Shown here: positions 2,612-50,925 of the stretch, piece after piece | Layout of the letters: every line of letters starts with the position of its first letter | How positions within the stretch are numbered: the stretch's first letter is position 1 | DNA from: Octopus vulgaris | Taxonomy: Eukaryota | Assembly (NCBI GenBank): GCA_951406725.2 | Contig: OX597816.1 | Location: 126,356,001 to 126,420,000 of the forward strand | Reading direction: 5' to 3' | DNA: 64,000 nt | Program-made: the position numbers and the translations under genes | The notes under the pieces: model-generated | Seen by the model: only the letters and a program-made list of their open reading frames with translations | Database searches by the model: none | Told to the model about the DNA's origin: nothing

Positions 2612-2695
<84 letters not shown>

Positions 2696-2744
2696 AAACA
2701 AGTCAAAAATAGAAAATGCTAAGATAATTTTATAGTGAATCTTT

Positions 2745-2782
2745 CAGTACTGGTTTCGGTCATTTTGAGACCTTTTCAACTG
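2745..2782 (-). ncRNA. Minimal hammerhead motif (U3-A8 variant) in the inverted terminal repeat
   Basis: Minus strand CAG-TTGAAAA-GGTC-TCAAAAT-GACC-GAAA-CCAGTA-CTG; the stem III palindrome is broken (ACCAGT versus ACCGGT in the right copy). Confidence 0.65.
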
Positions 2783-3189
2783 TAACGATTAAATAATTAA
2801 ATTTAGAAAAATTAGAAGAAAAGTTTTTTTAAAAGAATATTTCTGTAGTAGTGTTCAGATATAAGTAGCATTCTGCCTTTCTCTGACTCCCTTGTTTGCA
2901 CTTGTGTGTTCGAGGTCGTTTTGAGTTCTTGGTAGGATAGGTGAAGAATAATGAGGCTGATGTGGAGAGGGGGTGGGGAAATCTGGGAATGCCTTAATGG
3001 TCGTATTTTGAATGGTCAGTGGCTGACAGTAGTCGCAGTTCAATTCAGGAATTGTTTATGGAATTTGCGTAGGCGTTATACTGAAAGACATTAGTGACAA
3101 GGTTAAGGGGTGGAAGGTGAAGTAGAAGAAGAAGAAGATGACGATGTTGATGATGATGATGAAGAAGAAGAAGAACACCACACCCGAAT

Positions 3190-3351
3190 ATGGGATATCG
3201 GGATGCTCTCCTCAATACTGCTCCAAGAACATACACCATAAATCACAACAGGAGACCCCACATCAACAAAGAACAACTATATAATAGCTACCGTCCCAAC
3301 CACCGCATTCATTTTTTAGACCCAATACGCAAACACAGAGACACAAGATAG
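3190..3351 (+). CDS. Short upstream ORF (53 aa, MGYRDALLNTAPRTY...HRIHFLDPIRKHRDTR*), probably the C-terminus of a 5'-truncated PLE ORF1
   Basis: Manual translation; the frame is open from the inversion junction (~3175) to TAG 3349-3351 and overlaps the RT frame, which is open from 3288. Confidence 0.5.
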   Translation: MGYRDALLNTAPRTYTINHNRRPHINKEQLYNSYRPNHRIHFLDPIRKHRDTR

Positions 3352-3488
3352 CACCAAACAAGCAGGAGGAACCAAAAGTAATAAAAATTATCAATCTAAC
3401 TCACAAGGAACTAACAGCAAACCAAATTAACATACTTTCCAAAGGACTCAAGTTTACACCCACCCCACAACACCCCAACTACAACGAA

Positions 3489-5642
3489 ATGAAAGAAGAC
3501 ATCGCAGAATTCTACAGAAAATTAAGACTTACTGAGGAGCTATACGATAAATACAACGAGGACGAATCGTTAGCCAGAAATAGGAGTAACTACACCCCCT
3601 CGAAAGGTAAGAACAAAACACTTGATGATTTCTGTGACCACATATCTAATTACCCATATCAACATATGCACAAACAAAAACACAAACCAAACTTCAGCAA
3701 AAAAGAATGGGCTGAATTGAACAAATTAAAACAAGATAAAACAATAACAATCAAAGAGGCCGATAAAGGGAGTGCTGTTGTCTTAATGGATACAACATTT
3801 TACATAACTTTGGTACTTTCTATGCTGGAAGACACAACATACTATGAAAAGGCACAAAACTACAGTCAACAAAAAATAATGAGGGAACTAAAATCCATAT
3901 TAAACCCATACAAAGCAGGACTCACCGACAAAGAATATGATTATATGACCAATTTCACAAGTAAAACTAGCCAATTCTACGGTATACCTAAGATCCACAA
4001 AAGTGAAAAAATAAGCAACGCATGCAAGATAGCTACAGACAAAATAATTAAAGTCCCTAATCCTAATGACCTCAAATTGAGACCCATAATAGCAGGTCCC
4101 GCATGCGAAACCCACCGCCTCAGTAACTTTTTAGACACCCTGTTAAAACCACTCCTCAAACATGTCAAAAGCTATATAAGGGACGACTTAGATATGCTCA
4201 ATCACCTACCGAATACTATAAACAAAAACACCATACTGGTATCCTTCGATGTAGTCAACCTCTACTCCAATATCCCCCACAACCTAGGACTAGAGGCAAT
4301 CCAATTCTGGCTAGAGAATCACGCCAACGAACTACCACACCGCATCAAAAAAGAATTTGTGATAGAAGGGGTTAAATTCATCCTGGAAAATAACTTCTTC
4401 GCCTTCAATGACAACTTCTACCGACAAAAATCGGGGACTGCGATGGGTACACGAATGGCCCCCTCCTTTGCCAACCTAGTCATAGGATACCTAGAGATCA
4501 GTCTGTATCGTAAGGTTCTAGAAAGATATGGCAGCCCTTTCTCCATCTACATAGAAAACAACTGGAAGAGATATCTAGATGACTGTTTCATCCTTTGGCA
4601 TAAAAATATAGAAAAACTCATAGAATTCCAGAAAATTTTAAACGGACTGGACGTAAACATCCAATTCACGATGGAATATAGCCAACAACAACTCCCCTTC
4701 CTCGATATCCTCATTAAGAAAGCTAATAATATAATAGAAACAGACATATACTATAAGCCTACAGACTCTAAGCAATATCTTCCATTCAATTCATGCCACC
4801 CCAGACACACCAGGATGAATATCCCCTTCAATCTAGTAAAAAGGATATGCACTATAGTCTCTAACGCAAACACCAGAGACACACGACTACAAGAACTAAA
4901 AGATACCCTTATCACCAGGAACTATCCACCTTCACTTATTGACAAGTGCATTCAACGTGCCCTTCAACTTAACATCAAGGAACTGAGACATCCTAAATCA
5001 AAGAAAAACTTACAACCAAAAGCCTTACCATACATCTCCACACACAACCCTCTCAATAACGAAGCCTTCGACACCATCCTCCACAACATACCCCTCCTAA
5101 AAAAAGACCACAGAATGAACACAATCCTCCAAACACACACGATCATAAAAAGCAAAAGACAGCCTAGATCCATGAAAAGTCTCCTTACACAAGCCCGAAT
5201 TCACTCTTCAACACAGAAGCCGACAGTAAAAAAATGTGGAAGACCCAATTGCGGGATATGCGACTATCTAATTGAGGGATCAGAGTTCTCCTTCAAACAG
5301 GGACAACGGTTTACAGTGAAAAGCAACTTCACATGTGCTTCGGAGAACCTAATATACTCACTAACCTGCTCCGGGTGTCAAGAGCAGTACATAGGCCAAA
5401 CAAAAAATGGTTTGCGTAAACGAATGGCCCTGTACAGATCCCAGATAAAAATTCCCCAAAACAGAAAAATAGCTTTTAGCCAACACATAGATACTTGCGC
5501 CAACAAAAAAACACCAAACTTCAGAATTTTCCCCCTCTACCAATTTAGGGACGATACAACCTCGAGACAACGAATAAGTAAAGAAAATCTCTTTATTACA
5601 AAATACAAGCCACTTCTTAACGGGTCTACGACAAACAATTAA
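3489..5642 (+). CDS. PLE reverse transcriptase + GIY-YIG endonuclease
   Basis: Motifs ADKG, FYGIPKIHK, LRPII, SFDVVNLYSNI, GTAMG..MAPSFANL, RYLDD, FLD, YYKPT; CX4CX2C linker (CGRPNCGIC); LIY..TC..C..YIGQT. The frame extends upstream without ATG to 3288 and encodes IINLTHKEL...ILSKGLKFTPTP. Confidence 0.97.
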   Translation: MKEDIAEFYRKLRLTEELYDKYNEDESLARNRSNYTPSKGKNKTLDDFCDHISNYPYQHMHKQKHKPNFSKKEWAELNKLKQDKTITIKEADKGSAVVLMDTTFYITLVLSMLEDTTYYEKAQNYSQQKIMRELKSILNPYKAGLTDKEYDYMTNFTSKTSQFYGIPKIHKSEKISNACKIATDKIIKVPNPNDLKLRPIIAGPACETHRLSNFLDTLLKPLLKHVKSYIRDDLDMLNHLPNTINKNTILVSFDVVNLYSNIPHNLGLEAIQFWLENHANELPHRIKKEFVIEGVKFILENNFFAFNDNFYRQKSGTAMGTRMAPSFANLVIGYLEISLYRKVLERYGSPFSIYIENNWKRYLDDCFILWHKNIEKLIEFQKILNGLDVNIQFTMEYSQQQLPFLDILIKKANNIIETDIYYKPTDSKQYLPFNSCHPRHTRMNIPFNLVKRICTIVSNANTRDTRLQELKDTLITRNYPPSLIDKCIQRALQLNIKELRHPKSKKNLQPKALPYISTHNPLNNEAFDTILHNIPLLKKDHRMNTILQTHTIIKSKRQPRSMKSLLTQARIHSSTQKPTVKKCGRPNCGICDYLIEGSEFSFKQGQRFTVKSNFTCASENLIYSLTCSGCQEQYIGQTKNGLRKRMALYRSQIKIPQNRKIAFSQHIDTCANKKTPNFRIFPLYQFRDDTTSRQRISKENLFITKYKPLLNGSTTNN

Positions 5643-5759: not shown

Positions 5760-5935
5760 TTTCTTCTTCTTCTTCTTCCTCTTCTTCTTCATCATCATCA
5801 TTATCATCATCATCGTCGTCATCATCATCACCACCATCTTCTCCTTCTCCTTCTTCTTCTTCTTCTTCTTCTTCTTCTTCTTCTTCTTCATCATCATCAA
5901 CATCGTCATCTTCTTCTTCTTCTACTTCTCCACCT
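5760..5935. repeat. (TTC)n/(ATC)n trinucleotide tract in the PLE 3' UTR
   Basis: Seen directly; the inversion junction of the left repeat falls within this tract. Confidence 0.9.
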
Positions 5936-6266
5936 TCCACCCCTTAACCTTGTCACTAATGTCTTTCAGTATAACGCCTACGCAAATTCCATAAACAATT
6001 CCTGAATTGAACTGGACTACTGTCAGCCACTGACCATTCAAAATACGACCATTAAGGCATTCCCAGATTTCCCCACCCCCTCTCCACATTAGCCTCATTA
6101 TTCTTCACCTATCCTACCAAGAACTCAAAACGACCTCGAACACACAACTGCAAACAAGGGAGTCAGAGAAAGGCAGAATGCTACTTATATCTGAACACTA
6201 CTACAGAAATATTCTTTTGAAAAAACTTTTCTTCTAATTTTTCTAAATTTAATTATTTAATCGTTA

Positions 6267-6304
6267 CAGTTGAAAAGGTCTCAAAATGACCGAAACCGGT
6301 ACTG
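6267..6304 (+). ncRNA. Minimal type I hammerhead ribozyme (U3-A8 core variant)
   Basis: CAG-TTGAAAA-GGTC-TCAAAAT-GACC-GAAA-CCGGTA-CTG: stem I CAG/CTG, stem II GGTC/GACC, palindromic ACCGGT stem III, GUA triplet (predicted cut after 6301). Confidence 0.75.
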
Positions 6305-6391
6305 AAAGATTCACTATAAAATTATCTTAGCATTTTCTATTTTCGACTTGTTTTTTCATATATATCAACTCGTGTGTTCCTTTCCACCCTT

Positions 6392-6434
<43 letters not shown>

Positions 6435-17773: not shown

Positions 17774-18444
17774 GATTAAAGTCTAGATATGAAATTTTAC
17801 AATCTAGCTACGAAACCTTATTTTCAGTAGTGTGTTGGCAGAGCACGTTCACCACTTAAGACAACCAGACGTCATCCACGGTAAATGGTGTTAGGCCGTT
17901 GGATCTACGTTAGGAATTCTTCGCTGCACATTGAGTACATTCTAAATGATAGATACAGAAGACACAATGTATTGTAAACATTATTTATCACAACAATCTT
18001 TTTGGCATACTTCTCCACTGCTCCCAAGTGGGTGGGGAACGATATAATGAAATCGAATGCACCCCACAGTGCAGAAGGAACCTCATCAGGTGACATAATT
18101 GGCTTCTAAGTCATAAAATTTACATTTCGTTCGTAGGTGTAGCTAGATGATGTTGTTATTATTGGTATGTTGGTAGTAGTCGGTTCCCAAAATACGTTCG
18201 TGAAACAGAATAAGCGTGGTGTGTATTCAGAGTTCAACAGGCAGGAAGTGGTTGATAAAAAATACAAAATAGAATGCAAAGAATATAGAGGTAGGTCTTA
18301 ATGGCTTTGGAATGACCGATGGATTCACTACCACCTACGGTTATTTACTGTCCTAAATAATGTACTTTGCCATGATATGTCTTTTTTTAGAGATGAGCAT
18401 CCCACCACATACAATACATGCTTAAATGTCTCAAATATGTGTAT

Positions 18445-19445
18445 ATGCTGAAGTGTCATTATCCTGGCATAGAAGAACTCTTTTGTTTCAGACTCCAAGA
18501 AACTTCCTACAGCGTCTATGACGTCCTTGTCACTGGCAAAATGGCGACCAGCCAGGGCATTTTTCATTTTTGGGAATAGATGAAAAGCAAAGGGAGCTAA
18601 GTTTGGCAAATAAGGTGGATGGGGAACAAGCTCGTATCTACAATCACGAATTCTTGCCATGGCAACCACTGAGGTGTGGGCTGGAGCATTGTTATAATGA
18701 AAAAGGACTCCTTTGGTGAGCATTCTTGGCCTTTTTTCTTTGATTGCTTCTCGGAGGCGTTTCAGTAGCTGAGAATAATACAGCCCTGTCACGGTGTGAC
18801 CCTTTTCAAGGTAATCGATCAGGACACCTTGAGAATCCAAAAACAGAAACGGACGCCATGACCTTGCCAGCTGAAGGAATGACCCTGGCCTTCTTTGGAG
18901 TAGGAGAAGATATGTGTTTCCACTGCTTTGATTGTTCTTTGGTTTCAGACTGGTAGTGATGAACCCAGTTTTTGTCCATAGTAATGAAACAAGCAAGAAA
19001 ATTCCCTTCATTGGCTTCATACAATTCCAGATTGTACGTAGGCAAAGTGCACCTGGTGCGTTTCTGTTCAGAAGTCAAAAGGCGAGGGACCCACTTTGCG
19101 GAAACCTTTGAGAACCCAAGTTCTTTTGTCACAATGTTGTCTGCTATTTCAGTTGAGATGCCCAGTCTCTCAGCTATCAGACATGATATTCGGTGATCTT
19201 GCATTATCATACCAAGAGCAAAGCCAAGGTTGTCCTTGGTGGTTGCAGTTGGAGGTCTCCCTGGTGTGGGATCATATTCCACACTCTCCCTGCCAAGCTT
19301 GAATTCATTTACCCAGCGTTTGACTGTTGCATATGAAGAAGCATTGTCTGTTAAGGTTCTCACCATATCTTCATAGATTTCTGATGAAGTCATGCTTTCA
19401 AATGAAAGTACTTCATGACAGCATGATACTCAGTTTTCTCCATTC
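18445..19445 (-). pseudogene. Mariner transposase pseudogene (frameshifted, ends truncated)
   Basis: ORFs 18806-19393 and 18328-19020 give WVPRLLT, ITMDKNWVHHY, FHYNNAPAH, HPPYLPNLAP; catalytic aspartates partly mutated; start MEKTEYHAV at 19443. Confidence 0.93.
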
Positions 19446-19499: not shown

Positions 19500-20378
19500 A
19501 ATATCCAAAAATTAGTATAACCAAAAATAGTGAATCTCTCAAACATAAACCTTTCAACCCAGCAAATCAAAATCCTTTCAAAAGGACTAAACTTCACTCC
19601 AACCCCACAATACCCTAACCTGAGTGAAATACAGGATGCTGTCTCATACTTTTGCAGAAAATTACACCTCACAGAGGAATTTTTTGACAAAGAAATTAAT
19701 AACGAGGAATCAAGACCAATTATAAGGCAGAAACAAAATTTTGGACAAATTTTGTGACTACATTACAAACTTTCCTTATAGCGAATTTCCACAACCTAAA
19801 CCCAAGCCCAATATCAGTAAAAGGGAATGGGAAATCATCTATGAGTTACAAAACAATCATGACATGACAATCAAGGGAACAGAAAAGAGTAGTACTGTCG
19901 TCATTATGGATACTGAACAGTACAAAAACTCTGTATCTCACCTCTTACAAGATACTACCTACTATGAAAGAGTAGTCAACCACCAACAATCAATAACAAT
20001 TACCAAATTAAACACATTCATTTGCCAACATCGAAATAACTTAACGGCAAAGGAAGGTGACTACCTAACAAATTTTAATTGCAAAACCAGCATCCTCTAT
20101 GGGCTTCCAAGAATCCACAAGAGCAAGATAATTACCAAAGCTTGCAAAAAGTTCACTTCAACCTGCATCACTGTACCACATCCCACTGATCTCAAACTGA
20201 GACCAACTGTGGCAGGTGCAAACCGCGAAGCACACAGATTAAGCAACTTCATCGATGTACTCTTAAAACCAATACTTAAATACATACCAAGTATTGTAAG
20301 AGATGATGGACCTACTAAATCCTCTCCCCAAACATACCAATAAAGACATTTTCATTGTCTCCTTTGATGTAATTAACC
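19500..20378 (+). pseudogene. Decayed PLE RT N-terminal fragment, related to the 3489 element
   Basis: IVNLSNINLS...ILSKGLNFTPTP, LYGLPRIHK, LKLRP, HRLSNFID, SFDVIN; contains frameshifts and is 3' truncated. Confidence 0.9.
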
Positions 20379-27690: not shown

Positions 27691-28969
27691 ATCATCATCA
27701 TCATCATCATCATCGTTTAGCGTCCGCTTTCCATGCTAGCATGGGTTAGACAGGTCAACTGGGGTCTGTGAAGCTGGAAGGCTTCGTCAGGCCCAGTCAG
27801 ATCTGGCAGTGTTTCTACGGCTGGATGCCCTTCCTAACGCCAACCACTCCACGAGTGTAGTGGGTGTTTTTTACGTGCCACCTGCACAGGTGCCAGACAG
27901 AGCTGGCGAACGGCCACGAACGGATGGTGCTTTTACGTGTCACCGGCACGGGGCCAGGCGATGCTGGCAACGGACACGAACGGATGGTGCTTTTACGTGC
28001 CACCGACACGGGGCCAGACAGAGCTGGCAAACGGCCACGAACGGACGGTGCTTTTACGTGTCACCGGCACGGGGACCAGCCGAGGCTGGCAACGGACGCG
28101 AACGGATGGTGCTTTTACGTGCCACCGACACGGTTGCCAGACAGAGCTGGCAAACGGCAACGAGCGGACGGTGCTTTTACGTGTCACCGGCACGGGGGCC
28201 AGCCAAGGCTGGCAATGGACACGAACGGATGGTGCTTTTACGTGCCACCGACATGGGGCCAGACAGAGCTGGCAAACGGCCACGAACGGATGGTGCTTTT
28301 ACATGCCACCGACACAGGGCCAGACAAAGCTGGCAAACGGCCACGAACGGACGGTGCTTTTACGTGTCACCGGCACGGGGCCAGGCGAGGCTGGCAACGA
28401 ACACAAATGGATGGTGCTTTTACGTGCCACCGACACGGGGCCAGGCAGAGCTGGCAAACGGCCAAGAGCGAATGGTGCTTTTACGTATCACCGGCACGGG
28501 TGCCAGACGAGGCTGACAGCGGACACGAACGGATGGGTCACTTAACCCCTGCTTTCTGATATATGATTTGATTTTGATTGTTCTCACTGGTTTTGCCGGG
28601 TCTTCTCACGTACAGCATACTTCCATAGGTCTCGGCCTCTGGTCATTTCCTTGGTGAGACCTAGAGTTCGAAGGTCGTGCTTCACCACCTCGACCCAGGT
28701 TTTCCTGGGTCTACCTCTTCCACAGGTCCCCTCAACTGCCAGGGTGTGGCACTTTTTCACACACCTATCTTCATCCATTCTCACCACATGACCATACCAG
28801 CGCAATCGTCTCTCTTGCACACAACATCTGATTCCTCTTAGGTCCAACTTTTCTCTCAAGGTACTTACACTCTGTCGACTATGAACACTGACATTACACA
28901 TCCAACGGAGCATACTAGCTTCATTTCTCGCGAGCTTACGCATGTCCTCAGCAGTCACGGCCCATGTTT
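27691..28969 (-). mobile_element. Young 5'-truncated RTE LINE (RT C-terminus, 3' UTR minisatellite, (GAT)n tail)
   Basis: ORF 28584-28958 with MLRWMC, RRLRWYGHVVRM, GRGRPRKTW; ends ...GGACGCTAAACGATGATGAT. Confidence 0.92.
27864..28537. repeat. GC-rich ~60-bp minisatellite, about 11 units, alternating A/B subtypes
   Basis: Core GGTGCTTTTACGTG recurs every 60-63 bp; GCCACCGACAC and GTCACCGGCAC units mostly alternate. Confidence 0.95.
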
Positions 28970-41478: not shown

Positions 41479-41848
41479 AAATGTGAAGAAATAATCACCA
41501 ATATTTATGTTAATTGATGCTTTGCAGCACTTGTGGTTGATTCTTATGATTTAATTGTATTTTAAGAAATTGTTGTTGTTAGTATTAGTGTAGGACAGTA
41601 GATGACAGAACAAATTTACAGAACCAAAATGACTGGCTATATCTAATTTCACTTCTTCATGTTCTGAGTTCAAATACTTTCAGAGCTGATTTTCAATTTA
41701 ATATTTCTGAGGTCTATCAAAAAATACTATATCAAATACAACTCTTCCATTTGACCTTGTGCTAAATGTGACCTGTCTAAAATGTGTGTGTGTGTGTGTG
41801 TGTGTGTATTTATGCATGTATGTATAATTATATGTGTGTAGGTGTGTG

Positions 41849-42101
41849 CAGTGGCAGACTGGCCAGGTTGCCAGCTTGCCTGATGTCAAGTGGGCCCCTG
41901 CACCATTAGAATCCACAGTTGGAGAATTTTTTATTCACTCCTGGAAGAATGCATTAGTTATTTCAGCCTGGCTCTGTTTGTAGACAGTTGAAAAGAATAC
42001 TTTTAACAAAAAAAAAAGAAAATTAAATGATAGCATTGTAGTTGCGGGTGGGCCCCCTTAGTCTCCTGGCAACCAATATTTTTAGACCCAGTCCACCACT
42101 G
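41849..42101. mobile_element. MITE, hAT-like termini
   Basis: TIRs CAGTGGCAGACTGG / CCAGTCCACCACTG, internal GGGCCCC motifs, inserted in (TG)n; TSD unclear. Confidence 0.65.
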
Positions 42102-42479
42102 TGTGCGTGTGTGTACATAGCAATATATCTATGTATACTTATTGATGATTGTTTTAAATGTGGATAACTCAGTAAATACTTTAGAAAAATACAGCATTCT
42201 TCTGAATAATTTACATCAAAAGACTAAATTTTCAAGAGTAACAAGTACTATAAAATTGTCATCAGCTATATATAAAACATGGCATTCCATATTGTCTGGC
42301 CAAGAAAGTTTGTACCATTGTTGGTTATTGAACAGAGCAGAATGATGCTAAGAATGCAAAAGACTTCTATTTAAACAAAACTGTTCACCACTGCTTAAAC
42401 AAAATAGTGCAGAATGTGCAAAATAAATATAGAATATCTTTGGACAATATGAGAAAGAAACACAGTACCAAAATATAGT

Positions 42480-42990
42480 ACTTTTTGTACTGTCACATAA
42501 TCCATGTAATCATATTACTTTTAATGTTGCTAAATCAGGTTTTGTGATTATCAAAGTAATTAGTTAAAAGATTTAAATACAAGTAAACCTCTTTTTCAAA
42601 GGAAACAACAATCTAAGAACTTGAAACAATTCTTTGTGAAAGCAAATGTTGAACTGAGTATTGGTGACAAAACCTTTACTGTATCTAAGTGTGATGATAA
42701 TCGTTGTGAGATGTCATATATTGACCATTATAACAACACAAAGCCAAGAAGAACATATTTTAAAATGCAGATATCAACTGTAAAAGCATAGATCTATTTT
42801 ACTGTACTAGATGCCAGAATTGTGCAGAAATGTATATTACCAAGAGTGAAAATTAATGATCAGAATGCATTCTATTACACCAGTAATAATTTTTGAATAA
42901 AAATTCTTTAAAATACCAAATTTGTGAAATTTATCACTCAAAGTAAGATTAAAAGAAGAGTAAAAGAAAAGAATAGCCAATGATATTTAT
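42480..42990 (+). pseudogene. Very old PLE GIY-YIG remnant
   Basis: SHNPCN, VSKCDDNRCEM and NADINCKSIDLFYCTRCQNCAEMYI align by eye to the C-terminus of the 3489 ORF. Confidence 0.55.
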
Positions 42991-43347
42991 TTGAATTTCA
43001 TTTGATTTGAAAATAATATTCACACCAAAATTGTAAAACTGAATTATTTAATGTACATCACCTTTTAACTATACAGAGACATAACATAATTGTAGTTGCA
43101 TTACCATGTAAACATATACCTAAAGGTAGTTGAGTGACAATCTGGCTATGTTGGAAGTTGATGGACTAATTCATTGTGAATCCAATAGAAAAACTTGAAG
43201 AACGCACCTTTCATTTGAAGATTGCTCCAAATGTTGTTTAACTTAGATTTTATAATTTTATTTACACAATGGTCCAAGTCAATCATTTTCTCTGTGTGAA
43301 AGACATACAGTTACTAAAAATTATACAACATCCTTCCACAAACACAT

Positions 43348-43348
43348 G

Positions 43349-43380
<32 letters not shown>

Positions 43381-43470
43381 TGTATGTATGTATGTATGTA
43401 TGTATGTATGTATGTATGTATGTATGTATGTGTGTGTGTGTGTATGTGTGTATGTATGTACGTATGCATG
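43348..43470. repeat. (TATG)n microsatellite
   Basis: Seen directly. Confidence 0.95.
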
Positions 43471-43518
43471 TATCTGCACACATGTATGTATAAATATATT
43501 CAGTTATATGTGAATAGA

Positions 43519-43773
43519 TATTTGGCTGGTGCATAATTATTGCAGTTTTTTTTCAACAAATTTTATTCAACAAAAGCAAAAACAATGTTTAACAAAAACA
43601 TCTTTAAATGATGGTCTGGCTGTCTCCCAAGCAAATGGGAAGCAGTAAATGAAGTAGATGGTAAATATGCTCCGGAATAATCACTTAAAGATGTTTTTGT
43701 TACATGTTGCTATTGTTTTTGTTGAATAAAATTTGTTGAGAAAACACTGCAGTAATTATGCACCAAACCAATA
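43519..43773. mobile_element. Mariner-derived MITE with ~90-bp inverted arms
   Basis: TATTTGGCTGGTGCATAATTATTGCAGTTTT / CACTGCAGTAATTATGCACCAAACCAATA resemble Hsmar1/MADE1-type TIRs; TA flanks. Confidence 0.85.
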
Positions 43774-47560: not shown

Positions 47561-47769
47561 AGCATATATGTATGCACGTGTGTCTGTACATGTGTGTGTG
47601 TGCATGTGTGTCTATATATGTATACACGTGTATATACTTTGTGTAGGCACAATGGTCCAGTGGTTAGGGCAGCAGACTCACGATCAGAGGATCACAGTTT
47701 TGATTCCTAGACCGGGCATTGTGTGTGTATATCAAAAAAGGCGATGTCAACAAAGATAATATAACCAAA

Positions 47770-49591: not shown

Positions 49592-49595
<4 letters not shown>

Positions 49596-50037
49596 ATAAT
49601 ATACATCTGGAAGATCCTGGAAGGACTTGTCCCAAACTTTGGCATTGAGAGTTACACAAATGCCAGAACTGGGCGCAACTGTGTGGTGCCTAGGACTCCA
49701 AATTTGCCATCAAGATGTAGGACAAGATACTGTGATAGCCTGGGCTTCTGAGGCCCACAGCTCTTCAATATCCTCCTGAAGAACCTAAGAGACCTGCATG
49801 GGGTGGATGCAGATGTCTTTAAAATGAAACTGGATCTCTTCTTGTCAGGTATCCCAGATGAACCAACTTCACGGCAGGAGGTGCAGATGAGGGCAGCTGC
49901 ATCGAACTCTCTCATGCACCAAATGGCAGTTGCTAAAAAGCATTCATGAAGTAAAACCATGTAGCAACACCAAATGGCGGTGCCCCAGCATGGCCACAGC
50001 TCGTGAGCTGAAACTAGAATCAATCAATCAATCAATC

Positions 50038-50085: not shown

Positions 50086-50087
<2 letters not shown>

Positions 50088-50833
50088 GCCAAACTGCGCA
50101 ACATGCCCAAACCTTCTAGAAGGATCAGAATTTCTTTTCAAAGAGGAACAAAAATTCAAGATCAGATCTAATTTTACTTGTGCTTCTGAAAACATAATTT
50201 ATGTCATAAGGTGCTCGGGCTGCCACTAAAACTACGTGGGGTCCACGGGATTATCACTCAGACATAGATTCACTCTGCATCGACAACAGATTGCATTCCC
50301 AGAATACAGAATGATACCCTTTAGTGAGCATATGGAGAAATGCGCAACGCAACTACTACCACAATTTTTAATCTTTCCATTCTATCAATGTGCCATCGGA
50401 ACACCAACACAAATTAGATTAAACAAGGAAACATTCTTCATTGAAAAATATAAGCCTGAACTTAACCATCCTAACATTCTTATACAGAGAAACTCATCTC
50501 ATTAGATAAGGGAAAAGAAATATAAAGCGATTACCTCCCTTATACCGGAAGAAATCGCTTATTACCTCCCCCTGCCTGGAACTCTTCTTTGCACTGCATA
50601 ACGAAGACATAACACGATGTAGGTAAAGACATTTAAGAAATTTGAAAAGTTAACATGAAACCGGTAATTTCTTCAAAAACTATGTTACTATATGCAAAAT
50701 TTTATAACATTCTTCTAACATAACGACTTAAATATATTCTTTAACCTTATAAAACAAGCCTTCTGTAGTTTCTTCACTCTTTTCTATTTTCTATATATCC
50801 AACCACATGCTTTCACACACCAACTTTCTCACC
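50086..50833 (+). mobile_element. 5'-truncated PLE (GIY-YIG + 3' terminal repeat), second family
   Basis: RPNCATC...NFTCASENIIYVIRCSGCH*NYVGST...RFTLHRQQI...EKYKPELN; microsatellite flanks; hammerhead in the 3' region. Confidence 0.92.
50635..50673 (+). ncRNA. Minimal type I hammerhead ribozyme (U3-A8 core variant)
   Basis: AAGAAAT-TTGAAAA-GTTAACAT-GAAA-CCGGTA-ATTTCTT: perfect 7-bp stem I, very short stem II, palindromic ACCGGT stem III. Confidence 0.75.

Positions 50834-50925
<92 letters not shown>

Follow-up and report, generated by a model that had tools for sequence, protein, structure and literature searches.

A 39-nt type I hammerhead motif of the U3-A8 variant lies at positions 50635-50673 of the window, the whole 64-kb stretch of Octopus vulgaris DNA analysed here, inside a 5'-truncated Penelope-like element (PLE). 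Shuffling excludes chance and confirms the motif as real. As to how its RNA would function, we lean towards a reading in which tandem transcripts are cut after A50666 only as dimers joined through ACCGGU, with a weak helix II of two pairs formed within each strand.

The motif and its host element

The motif reads AAGAAAT / TTGAAAA / GTTAACAT / GAA / ACCGGT / A / ATTTCTT (Table 1). It presents the U3-A8 core with U4 G5 A6 and A9, followed by G12 A13 A14, the A15.1-U16.1 pair (A50660 and T50665) and A50666, which by hammerhead numbering we take to be H17, with predicted cleavage 3' of this A. Its 5' and 3' ends lie on helix I, where seven Watson-Crick pairs form, as a preliminary description of this DNA had said of a perfect 7-bp stem I. 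The same description was right that TTGAAAA and GAAACCGGTA recur letter for letter in a second motif near 6267 (6270-6301), which belongs to another PLE, element 1. The window holds exactly two occurrences of this joint pattern, a count that none of 100 shuffles reached.

Chance was gauged with a generic hammerhead descriptor that allowed either 3-8 pair and any palindrome and set a threshold on helix I length. When a helix I of 7 bp or more was required, no match arose in 40,000 dinucleotide-preserving randomizations of the 356-nt 3' region or in 150 shuffles of the whole window; when 3 bp sufficed but the palindrome had to span 6 nt, there were 2 in 40,000 and 3 in 150, respectively. Together with the sequence parse, these counts bear out the original call of a 39-nt U3-A8 hammerhead. 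Two weak matches in the window, with 2- or 4-nt palindromes, were dropped, as shuffled windows yield such matches by chance at a mean of 0.26 each. Rfam gave no match at gathering scores in the 64-kb window and, with E up to 10, no hammerhead family in 50400-50900, where its matches were mostly miRNA entries driven by microsatellites. The monomer folding z-score of the motif (0.32) is uninformative.

The host, element 2, has no second copy within the window by blastn. Just upstream of it lie, by eye, what we take to be a tRNA-head-like SINE remnant (47640-47725) and, presumably, a LINE-like 3' fragment (49595-49960). The endonuclease (EN) of element 2 is 52% identical to residues 653-778 of P0001, the element 1 protein (tblastn, E 4e-37), and 71% identical to P0007. 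Among animal-named proteins the closest are bivalve ones, at 45-47%, which points to a mollusc as the probable host. An in-frame stop stands at 50227-50229 and the frame ends at 50503-50505. Decay of the copy is nonetheless slight: of the 27 columns that 90% or more of 121 proteins have in common, the EN keeps 26, and the CpG observed/expected ratio is 0.67, against 0.29 for the window. Like the in-frame stop, the branch of element 2 in the EN tree points the other way, since at 0.29 it is longer than that of the nearest protein (0.13). The hammerhead lies on the sense strand, 136 nt 3' of the EN-frame stop and 160 nt before the end of the element. In the translations, a CxxC linker Zn finger with a long spacer precedes the C-terminal GIY-YIG domain, and by eye this linker resembles the Neptune rather than the Nematis rows in the portion of Fig. 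S2 of PMC8557442 drawn on here; on that comparison the host appears to be a Neptune-like PLE, element 2 itself having no reverse transcriptase (RT). Tails of 30-40 bp are described for PLEs in the excerpted text of the same source.

Table 1. Coordinates, within the window, of the two Penelope-like elements and of the parts of their hammerhead motifs
Feature	Positions	Strand	Basis or remark
Third hammerhead copy, in inverted 3'-end duplicate of element 1	2741..2786	-	Palindrome broken, one transition
Element 1, open RT + GIY-YIG frame (P0001), Neptune-like	3288..5642	+	Pfam RVT_1 E 3.5e-8, GIY-YIG E 0.0034
Element 1 hammerhead, 3-bp helix I, 4-bp helix II	6267..6304	+	Core and helix III as at 50635-50673
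Element 2, 5'-truncated Penelope-like element, 747 bp	50087..50833	+	(TA)n(GA)n microsatellites on both sides
GIY-YIG endonuclease remnant with CxxC linker	50089..50505	+	tblastn
Helix I, 5' strand	50635..50641	+	Pairs with 50667-50673 (7 bp, all Watson-Crick)
Core box 1, U3-A8 variant TTGAAAA	50642..50648	+	Sequence
Helix II segment, 8 nt	50649..50656	+	G10.1-U11.1 wobble, one U-A, 4-nt loop
G12 A13 A14	50657..50659	+	Sequence
Helix III, 6-nt palindrome ACCGGT (A15.1 to U16.1)	50660..50665	+	Predicted dimer interface
H17 (A), cleavage predicted on its 3' side	50666..50666	+	Hammerhead numbering
Helix I, 3' strand	50667..50673	+	7 Watson-Crick pairs
ATGTTA, complement of 50651-50656, weak pseudoknot lead	50682..50687	+	Duplex -3.4 kcal/mol
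35-nt terminal stretch after TATATAT, likely PLE tail	50799..50833	+	Parallels 6366-6395 of element 1

Kinship of the window motifs and their outside relatives

Elements 1 and 2 represent different families, because their DNA is 68% identical over 108 bases, and in this respect the earlier assignment of the motif to a second PLE family was sound. To call the motif independent, however, was to overstate the case. Both endonucleases fall in one 10-row group of a 27-row EN tree (support 91/92), so the common core is most simply explained by inheritance, and the two window hammerheads are most likely homologous. Nor do their surroundings differ completely, as had been claimed: the UTRs have TTTTCTATTTTC in common, as well as a run of TATATAT and a similar terminal tail of 30-35 nt. 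Five helix I positions form pairs in each of the two window motifs, and at four of these the base has changed on both strands. The covariation read from this pair holds in that a conserved core is combined with an exchanged helix I, at these four positions and in the six outside loci described below, which supports the hammerhead call; a statistic on two sequences does not carry it. The element 1 motif is matched by the Rfam family Hammerhead_HH9 with E 0.0026, its 22.9 bits falling short of the gathering score.

Several other features of the window deserve mention. The 3' end of element 1 (5872-6434, +) is duplicated in inverted orientation at its 5' side (2615-3175, -; 98% over 495 bp); the duplicate lacks the 30-nt tail, and its helix III palindrome is broken by a G-to-A change at a CpG. 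A TTTTC...TATATAT arrangement recurs 3' of the hammerhead at 50780-50798, at 6333-6365 and at the 3' end of the outside locus L001; it may be a sign of where the element ends or of a promoter in the pLTR. At 19524-20377 (+) lies a piece of another PLE that covers the N-terminus and the early part of the RT, apparently of a third family (50% to P0001, 65% to P0004); it adjoins a Mariner/Mos1-like transposase remnant in two frames at 18328-19429 (-; Transposase_1 E 8e-11, HTH_48 E 3e-4). What is left of a PLE thumb and endonuclease at 42209-42883 (+) is badly decayed and interrupted by many stops. Descriptor scans found no hammerhead near either of these PLE remnants, and none was seen on reading through 41800-43600. 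Finally, a GC-rich tandem repeat of period 61 (27869-28536, about 11 copies) has open frames throughout, one of which gave no Pfam match.

Relatives outside the window came from one scan of prokaryotic assemblies, which yielded 43 loci (L001-L043). They are animal-type PLE RT or RT-EN genes in assemblies filed as bacterial, 27 of them in a single Stappiaceae assembly, and most likely represent host contamination in GTDB representatives. Seven matches resulted from a strict motif scan of all 43 loci, five of them on the sense strand just 3' of the protein match; the remaining two, in L012 (+, 9129) and L023 (-, 1415), lie outside a PLE 3' UTR and were excluded. A relaxed scan of 14 loci, with no demand on palindrome or helix I, added L001. 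By eye, six of these 14 outside PLE loci carry a sense-strand motif 152-491 nt 3' of the protein match. Among the eight that do not, three have 66-257 nt of 3' sequence, two have protein matches that end before the EN, and the last three show no motif in 700 nt. The TTGAAAA core is combined with the ACCGGT palindrome in none of the 43 outside loci. L007 has another U3-A8 core with a 6-nt palindrome, and positions 10.1-11.1 are U-U in L002:1852 and L004:2705 and A-U in L007:2161.

Across the six outside motifs and the two in the window, the 3-8 pair is kept in all eight (five C-G, three U-A), and helix III is palindromic in all eight, with six different sequences. The first two helix I pairs likewise form in every motif, with three and four pair types; five of the six outside motifs were found by a scan that required pairing, which makes the pairing counts partly circular. 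Pairs were counted by a script anchored on the core; MAFFT alignments misplaced the core gaps. A covariance model built from two sequences, L001 and L007, detected both element 1 copies. It missed 50635-50673 along with L002, L005 and L011, and gave L004 an E of 3.9; having missed three of the four other outside motifs searched, this model is too insensitive to decide the matter.

Predicted dimerization and the two-pair helix II

Folding predictions place the homodimer minimum at -13.7 kcal/mol, in a structure where helix III has 6 bp and the two copies trade helix I strands, and give ACCGGT an intermolecular pair probability of 0.92-0.96. The monomer comes to +1.6 kcal/mol when drawn as a hammerhead, its minimum being -2.5 kcal/mol. 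In the model we favour, two copies would pair through the 6-bp helix III and exchange helix I strands, each core being made of the enzyme strand of one copy and the substrate strand of the other, while helix II would fold within each strand. The short helix II would be near the family state, its formation would need magnesium or an element protein, and cleavage would be slow; GTTAAC, a second palindrome in the motif, would be incidental. Tandem transcripts of an active family would in this way be cleaved after A50666 as helix-III dimers. A helix-III dimer with low activity in vitro is also the model published for PLE hammerheads in the excerpts of PMC4209133 used here, and protein assistance has been shown for an anole PLE hammerhead (PMC11167929, in part). 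Because helix I is intermolecular in the dimer, elements 1 and 2 should not complete each other's cores despite their common ACCGGU, and the predicted heterodimer with the element 1 motif lacks helix I of the 50635-50673 motif. The lone 5'-truncated copy of element 2 is probably inert in place, since it has neither a tandem partner nor an upstream pLTR.

The weakness of this model, which the preliminary description did not flag, is helix II, only two pairs (G-U and U-A) round its 4-nt loop. Its hairpin is put at +4.1 kcal/mol, compared with -5.4 for that of element 1; its pair probability is 0.01 for the monomer, against 0.003 for the homodimer, and imposing it shifts the dimer from -9.7 to -4.9 kcal/mol. 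With 8 nt and two pairs it falls outside the descriptor in Fig. S7 of PMC4209133, which asks for 3-7 pairs and a 3-10-nt loop, and the segments of the other seven motifs measure 11-19 nt. Precedents exist, however, as natural hammerheads often have a helix II of 2 bp and once of 1 bp (PMC3088659, in part), that of L004 forms U-U plus 2 bp, and G10.1-U11.1 followed by U-A occurs in two PLE families in the excerpted rows of File S2 of PMC8557442. We consider it rather likely that the short helix II is the native state of the family.

A possible though somewhat doubtful alternative is that this copy is eroded: the family would have a helix II of at least three pairs and act as a helix-III dimer, bases would have been lost after insertion, and the copy would be dead, with GTTAAC an accident. 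By eye, at least three pairs are present in all 56 motifs of PMC4209133 Fig. S3 and in all 34 rows of the File S2 excerpt of PMC8557442, but these lists were built on a descriptor requiring three pairs, by which shorter helices are missed as a rule. Erosion would also fit the longer segments of the other seven motifs and the in-frame stop of this copy, and the difference from the arrangement in L004 would be explained if two bases had been lost on the 5' strand. Yet outside helix II the motif is flawless, its CpG included, and decay of the EN is slight, both of which speak against erosion.

It is improbable that the short helix is instead rescued by a pseudoknot, in which loop II would pair with ATGTTA downstream of the motif, much as happens in bacterial hammerheads whose helix II has 1-2 bp. 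Pseudoknot support was present when the precedents of 2 bp and 1 bp in the excerpts of PMC3088659 were tested. The 6-nt complementarity is worth -3.4 kcal/mol, and in five of the eight motifs the 3' tail holds a complementary run of four bases or more (p 0.022 by permutation), but this run-length threshold was picked after looking, the summed runs give p 0.22, and the 5' side gives p 0.09 and 0.24. Furthermore, 50682-50687 lies farther out than the partners in L002, L004 and L011, full pairing would use up U11.1, and the excerpted rows of PMC8557442 File S2 show, by eye, a recurrent GTTG-like tail beside a variable loop II.

Pairing between molecules through both palindromes, as originally proposed for helices II and III, strikes us as very unlikely, whether as a doubly linked dimer or as a helix-II-swapped, maxizyme-like open chain. 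In maxizyme design, the shared helix II must stay in register with both cores. Like a maxizyme, the motif has helix II reduced to a linker able to pair between two strands; maxizymes are artificial, however, and GTTAAC, which is indeed present at 50649-50654 inside the helix II segment, is out of register with the core. It begins at 10.1 and stops two bases short of 11.1, and in register the segment self-pairs at four of eight positions, which is not the maxizyme-like pattern. Pairing in the register of GTTAAC would leave two unpaired bases before G12, where the published descriptor allows one (PMC4209133, in part). The palindrome is also not beyond chance, because 6-nt palindromes occur in 25 of 349 UTR 8-mers and 4,528 of 63,993 window 8-mers (5-7%), and helix II contains one in two of the eight motifs, with no enrichment among relatives.

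The same proposal draws some strength from the GTTAAC duplex, worth -6.4 kcal/mol alone, from the very weak intramolecular helix II, and from engineered minizymes that work as dimers without stem-loop II (PMC10766806, in part). In the active hammerhead fold, though, helices II and III are stacked coaxially (PMC4209133, in part), and a dimer closed through both would hold them side by side and should be inactive, which leaves the open chain alone as possible. ViennaRNA cannot hold both links at once, as the pairs cross, and a search of the open-access literature found no natural helix-II-swapped dimer. Equally hard to credit is a natural minizyme in which helix II is a self-complementary linker, open chains form through alternating helices III and II, and cleavage occurs only at three or more copies.

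Lastly, that the common words are a DNA-level pseudo-LTR signal or chance and no ribozyme is scarcely credible: Rfam and the covariance model do not match 50635-50673, and ribozyme mutants of the anole PLE were not impaired in insertion in vitro (PMC11167929, in part), but the shuffle tests (0 of 40,000, 0 of 150 and 0 of 100) argue against it, and compensated helix I and 3-8 pairs with changing palindromes in eight motifs fit an RNA structure and not an invariant DNA word.

Known systems and significance

The reading we favour, a helix-III dimer with a two-pair helix II, has its closest counterpart in the minimal PLE hammerheads of Cervera and De la Pena (2014; PMC4209133). In the excerpts drawn on here, these share the 3'-repeat position in a PLE, the open helix I, the U3-A8 core, the short palindromic helix III and the dimer model; U3-A8 hammerheads give about 1,300 matches in S. 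mansoni, and the UUGAAAA core is common to 50635-50673 and S. mansoni family 4 (Fig. S3). The octopus motif differs in having two helix II pairs instead of three to eight, G-U instead of G-C at 10.1-11.1, no extra base between 9 and 10.1, and a longer helix I of 7 bp; G10.1-C11.1 and the extra base are typical but not universal. In the hammerheads of the Hydra and Chlamys clades (Craig et al. 2021; PMC8557442 File S2, as excerpted), ACCGGT occurs in Chlamys-2 and -5_cBra, A17 in many rows, and G10.1-U11.1 followed by U-A in Penelope-13_HM and -17_HM. All 34 of those rows, by contrast, have C3-G8 and at least three helix II pairs, and the host here is Neptune-like.

Hammerheads with a helix II of 1-2 bp (Perreault et al. 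2011; PMC3088659, in part) resemble the motif in this very short helix, in U3-A8 covariation, the U3-A8 variant being natural and active, and in the palindromic helix III of repeat-type animal hammerheads. The short-helix example tested there is, however, a type II hammerhead with a six-pair pseudoknot, against a weak pseudoknot lead here. Lunse, Weinberg and Breaker (2017; PMC5785218), to go by the title and by papers that cite it, reported that PLE hammerheads cleave as dimers, and the resemblance lies in the PLE host and the short palindromic helix III. A search of the open-access literature on cephalopod PLE hammerheads yielded nothing on the element 2 family.

To judge from its sequence, then, the motif at 50635-50673 would work like a minimal PLE hammerhead and descends from one, departing from the published descriptor in one feature. 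PLE hammerheads already in print show each of the other features: the U3-A8 core, A17, G10.1-U11.1 and a helix III that is palindromic, even with the very sequence ACCGGT. Only the two-pair helix II is unseen, by eye, in the 56 and 34 published PLE rows consulted, lists that their descriptor limits to helices of at least three pairs.

As the most likely reading stands, the motif is of little import in itself, since PLE hammerheads with U3-A8 and a palindromic helix III have been published since 2014. If the two-pair helix II is the family state, however, it would point to a class of PLE hammerheads invisible to the standard descriptor and to Rfam, and counts of PLE hammerheads would be underestimates because that class escapes both. 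If this helix is native, the motif would also provide a natural construct of 39 nt for defining the minimum helix II of a dimeric hammerhead. Moreover, two families in the same genome that have the same core and palindrome and a different helix I would offer a simple test of whether helix I blocks cleavage in trans.
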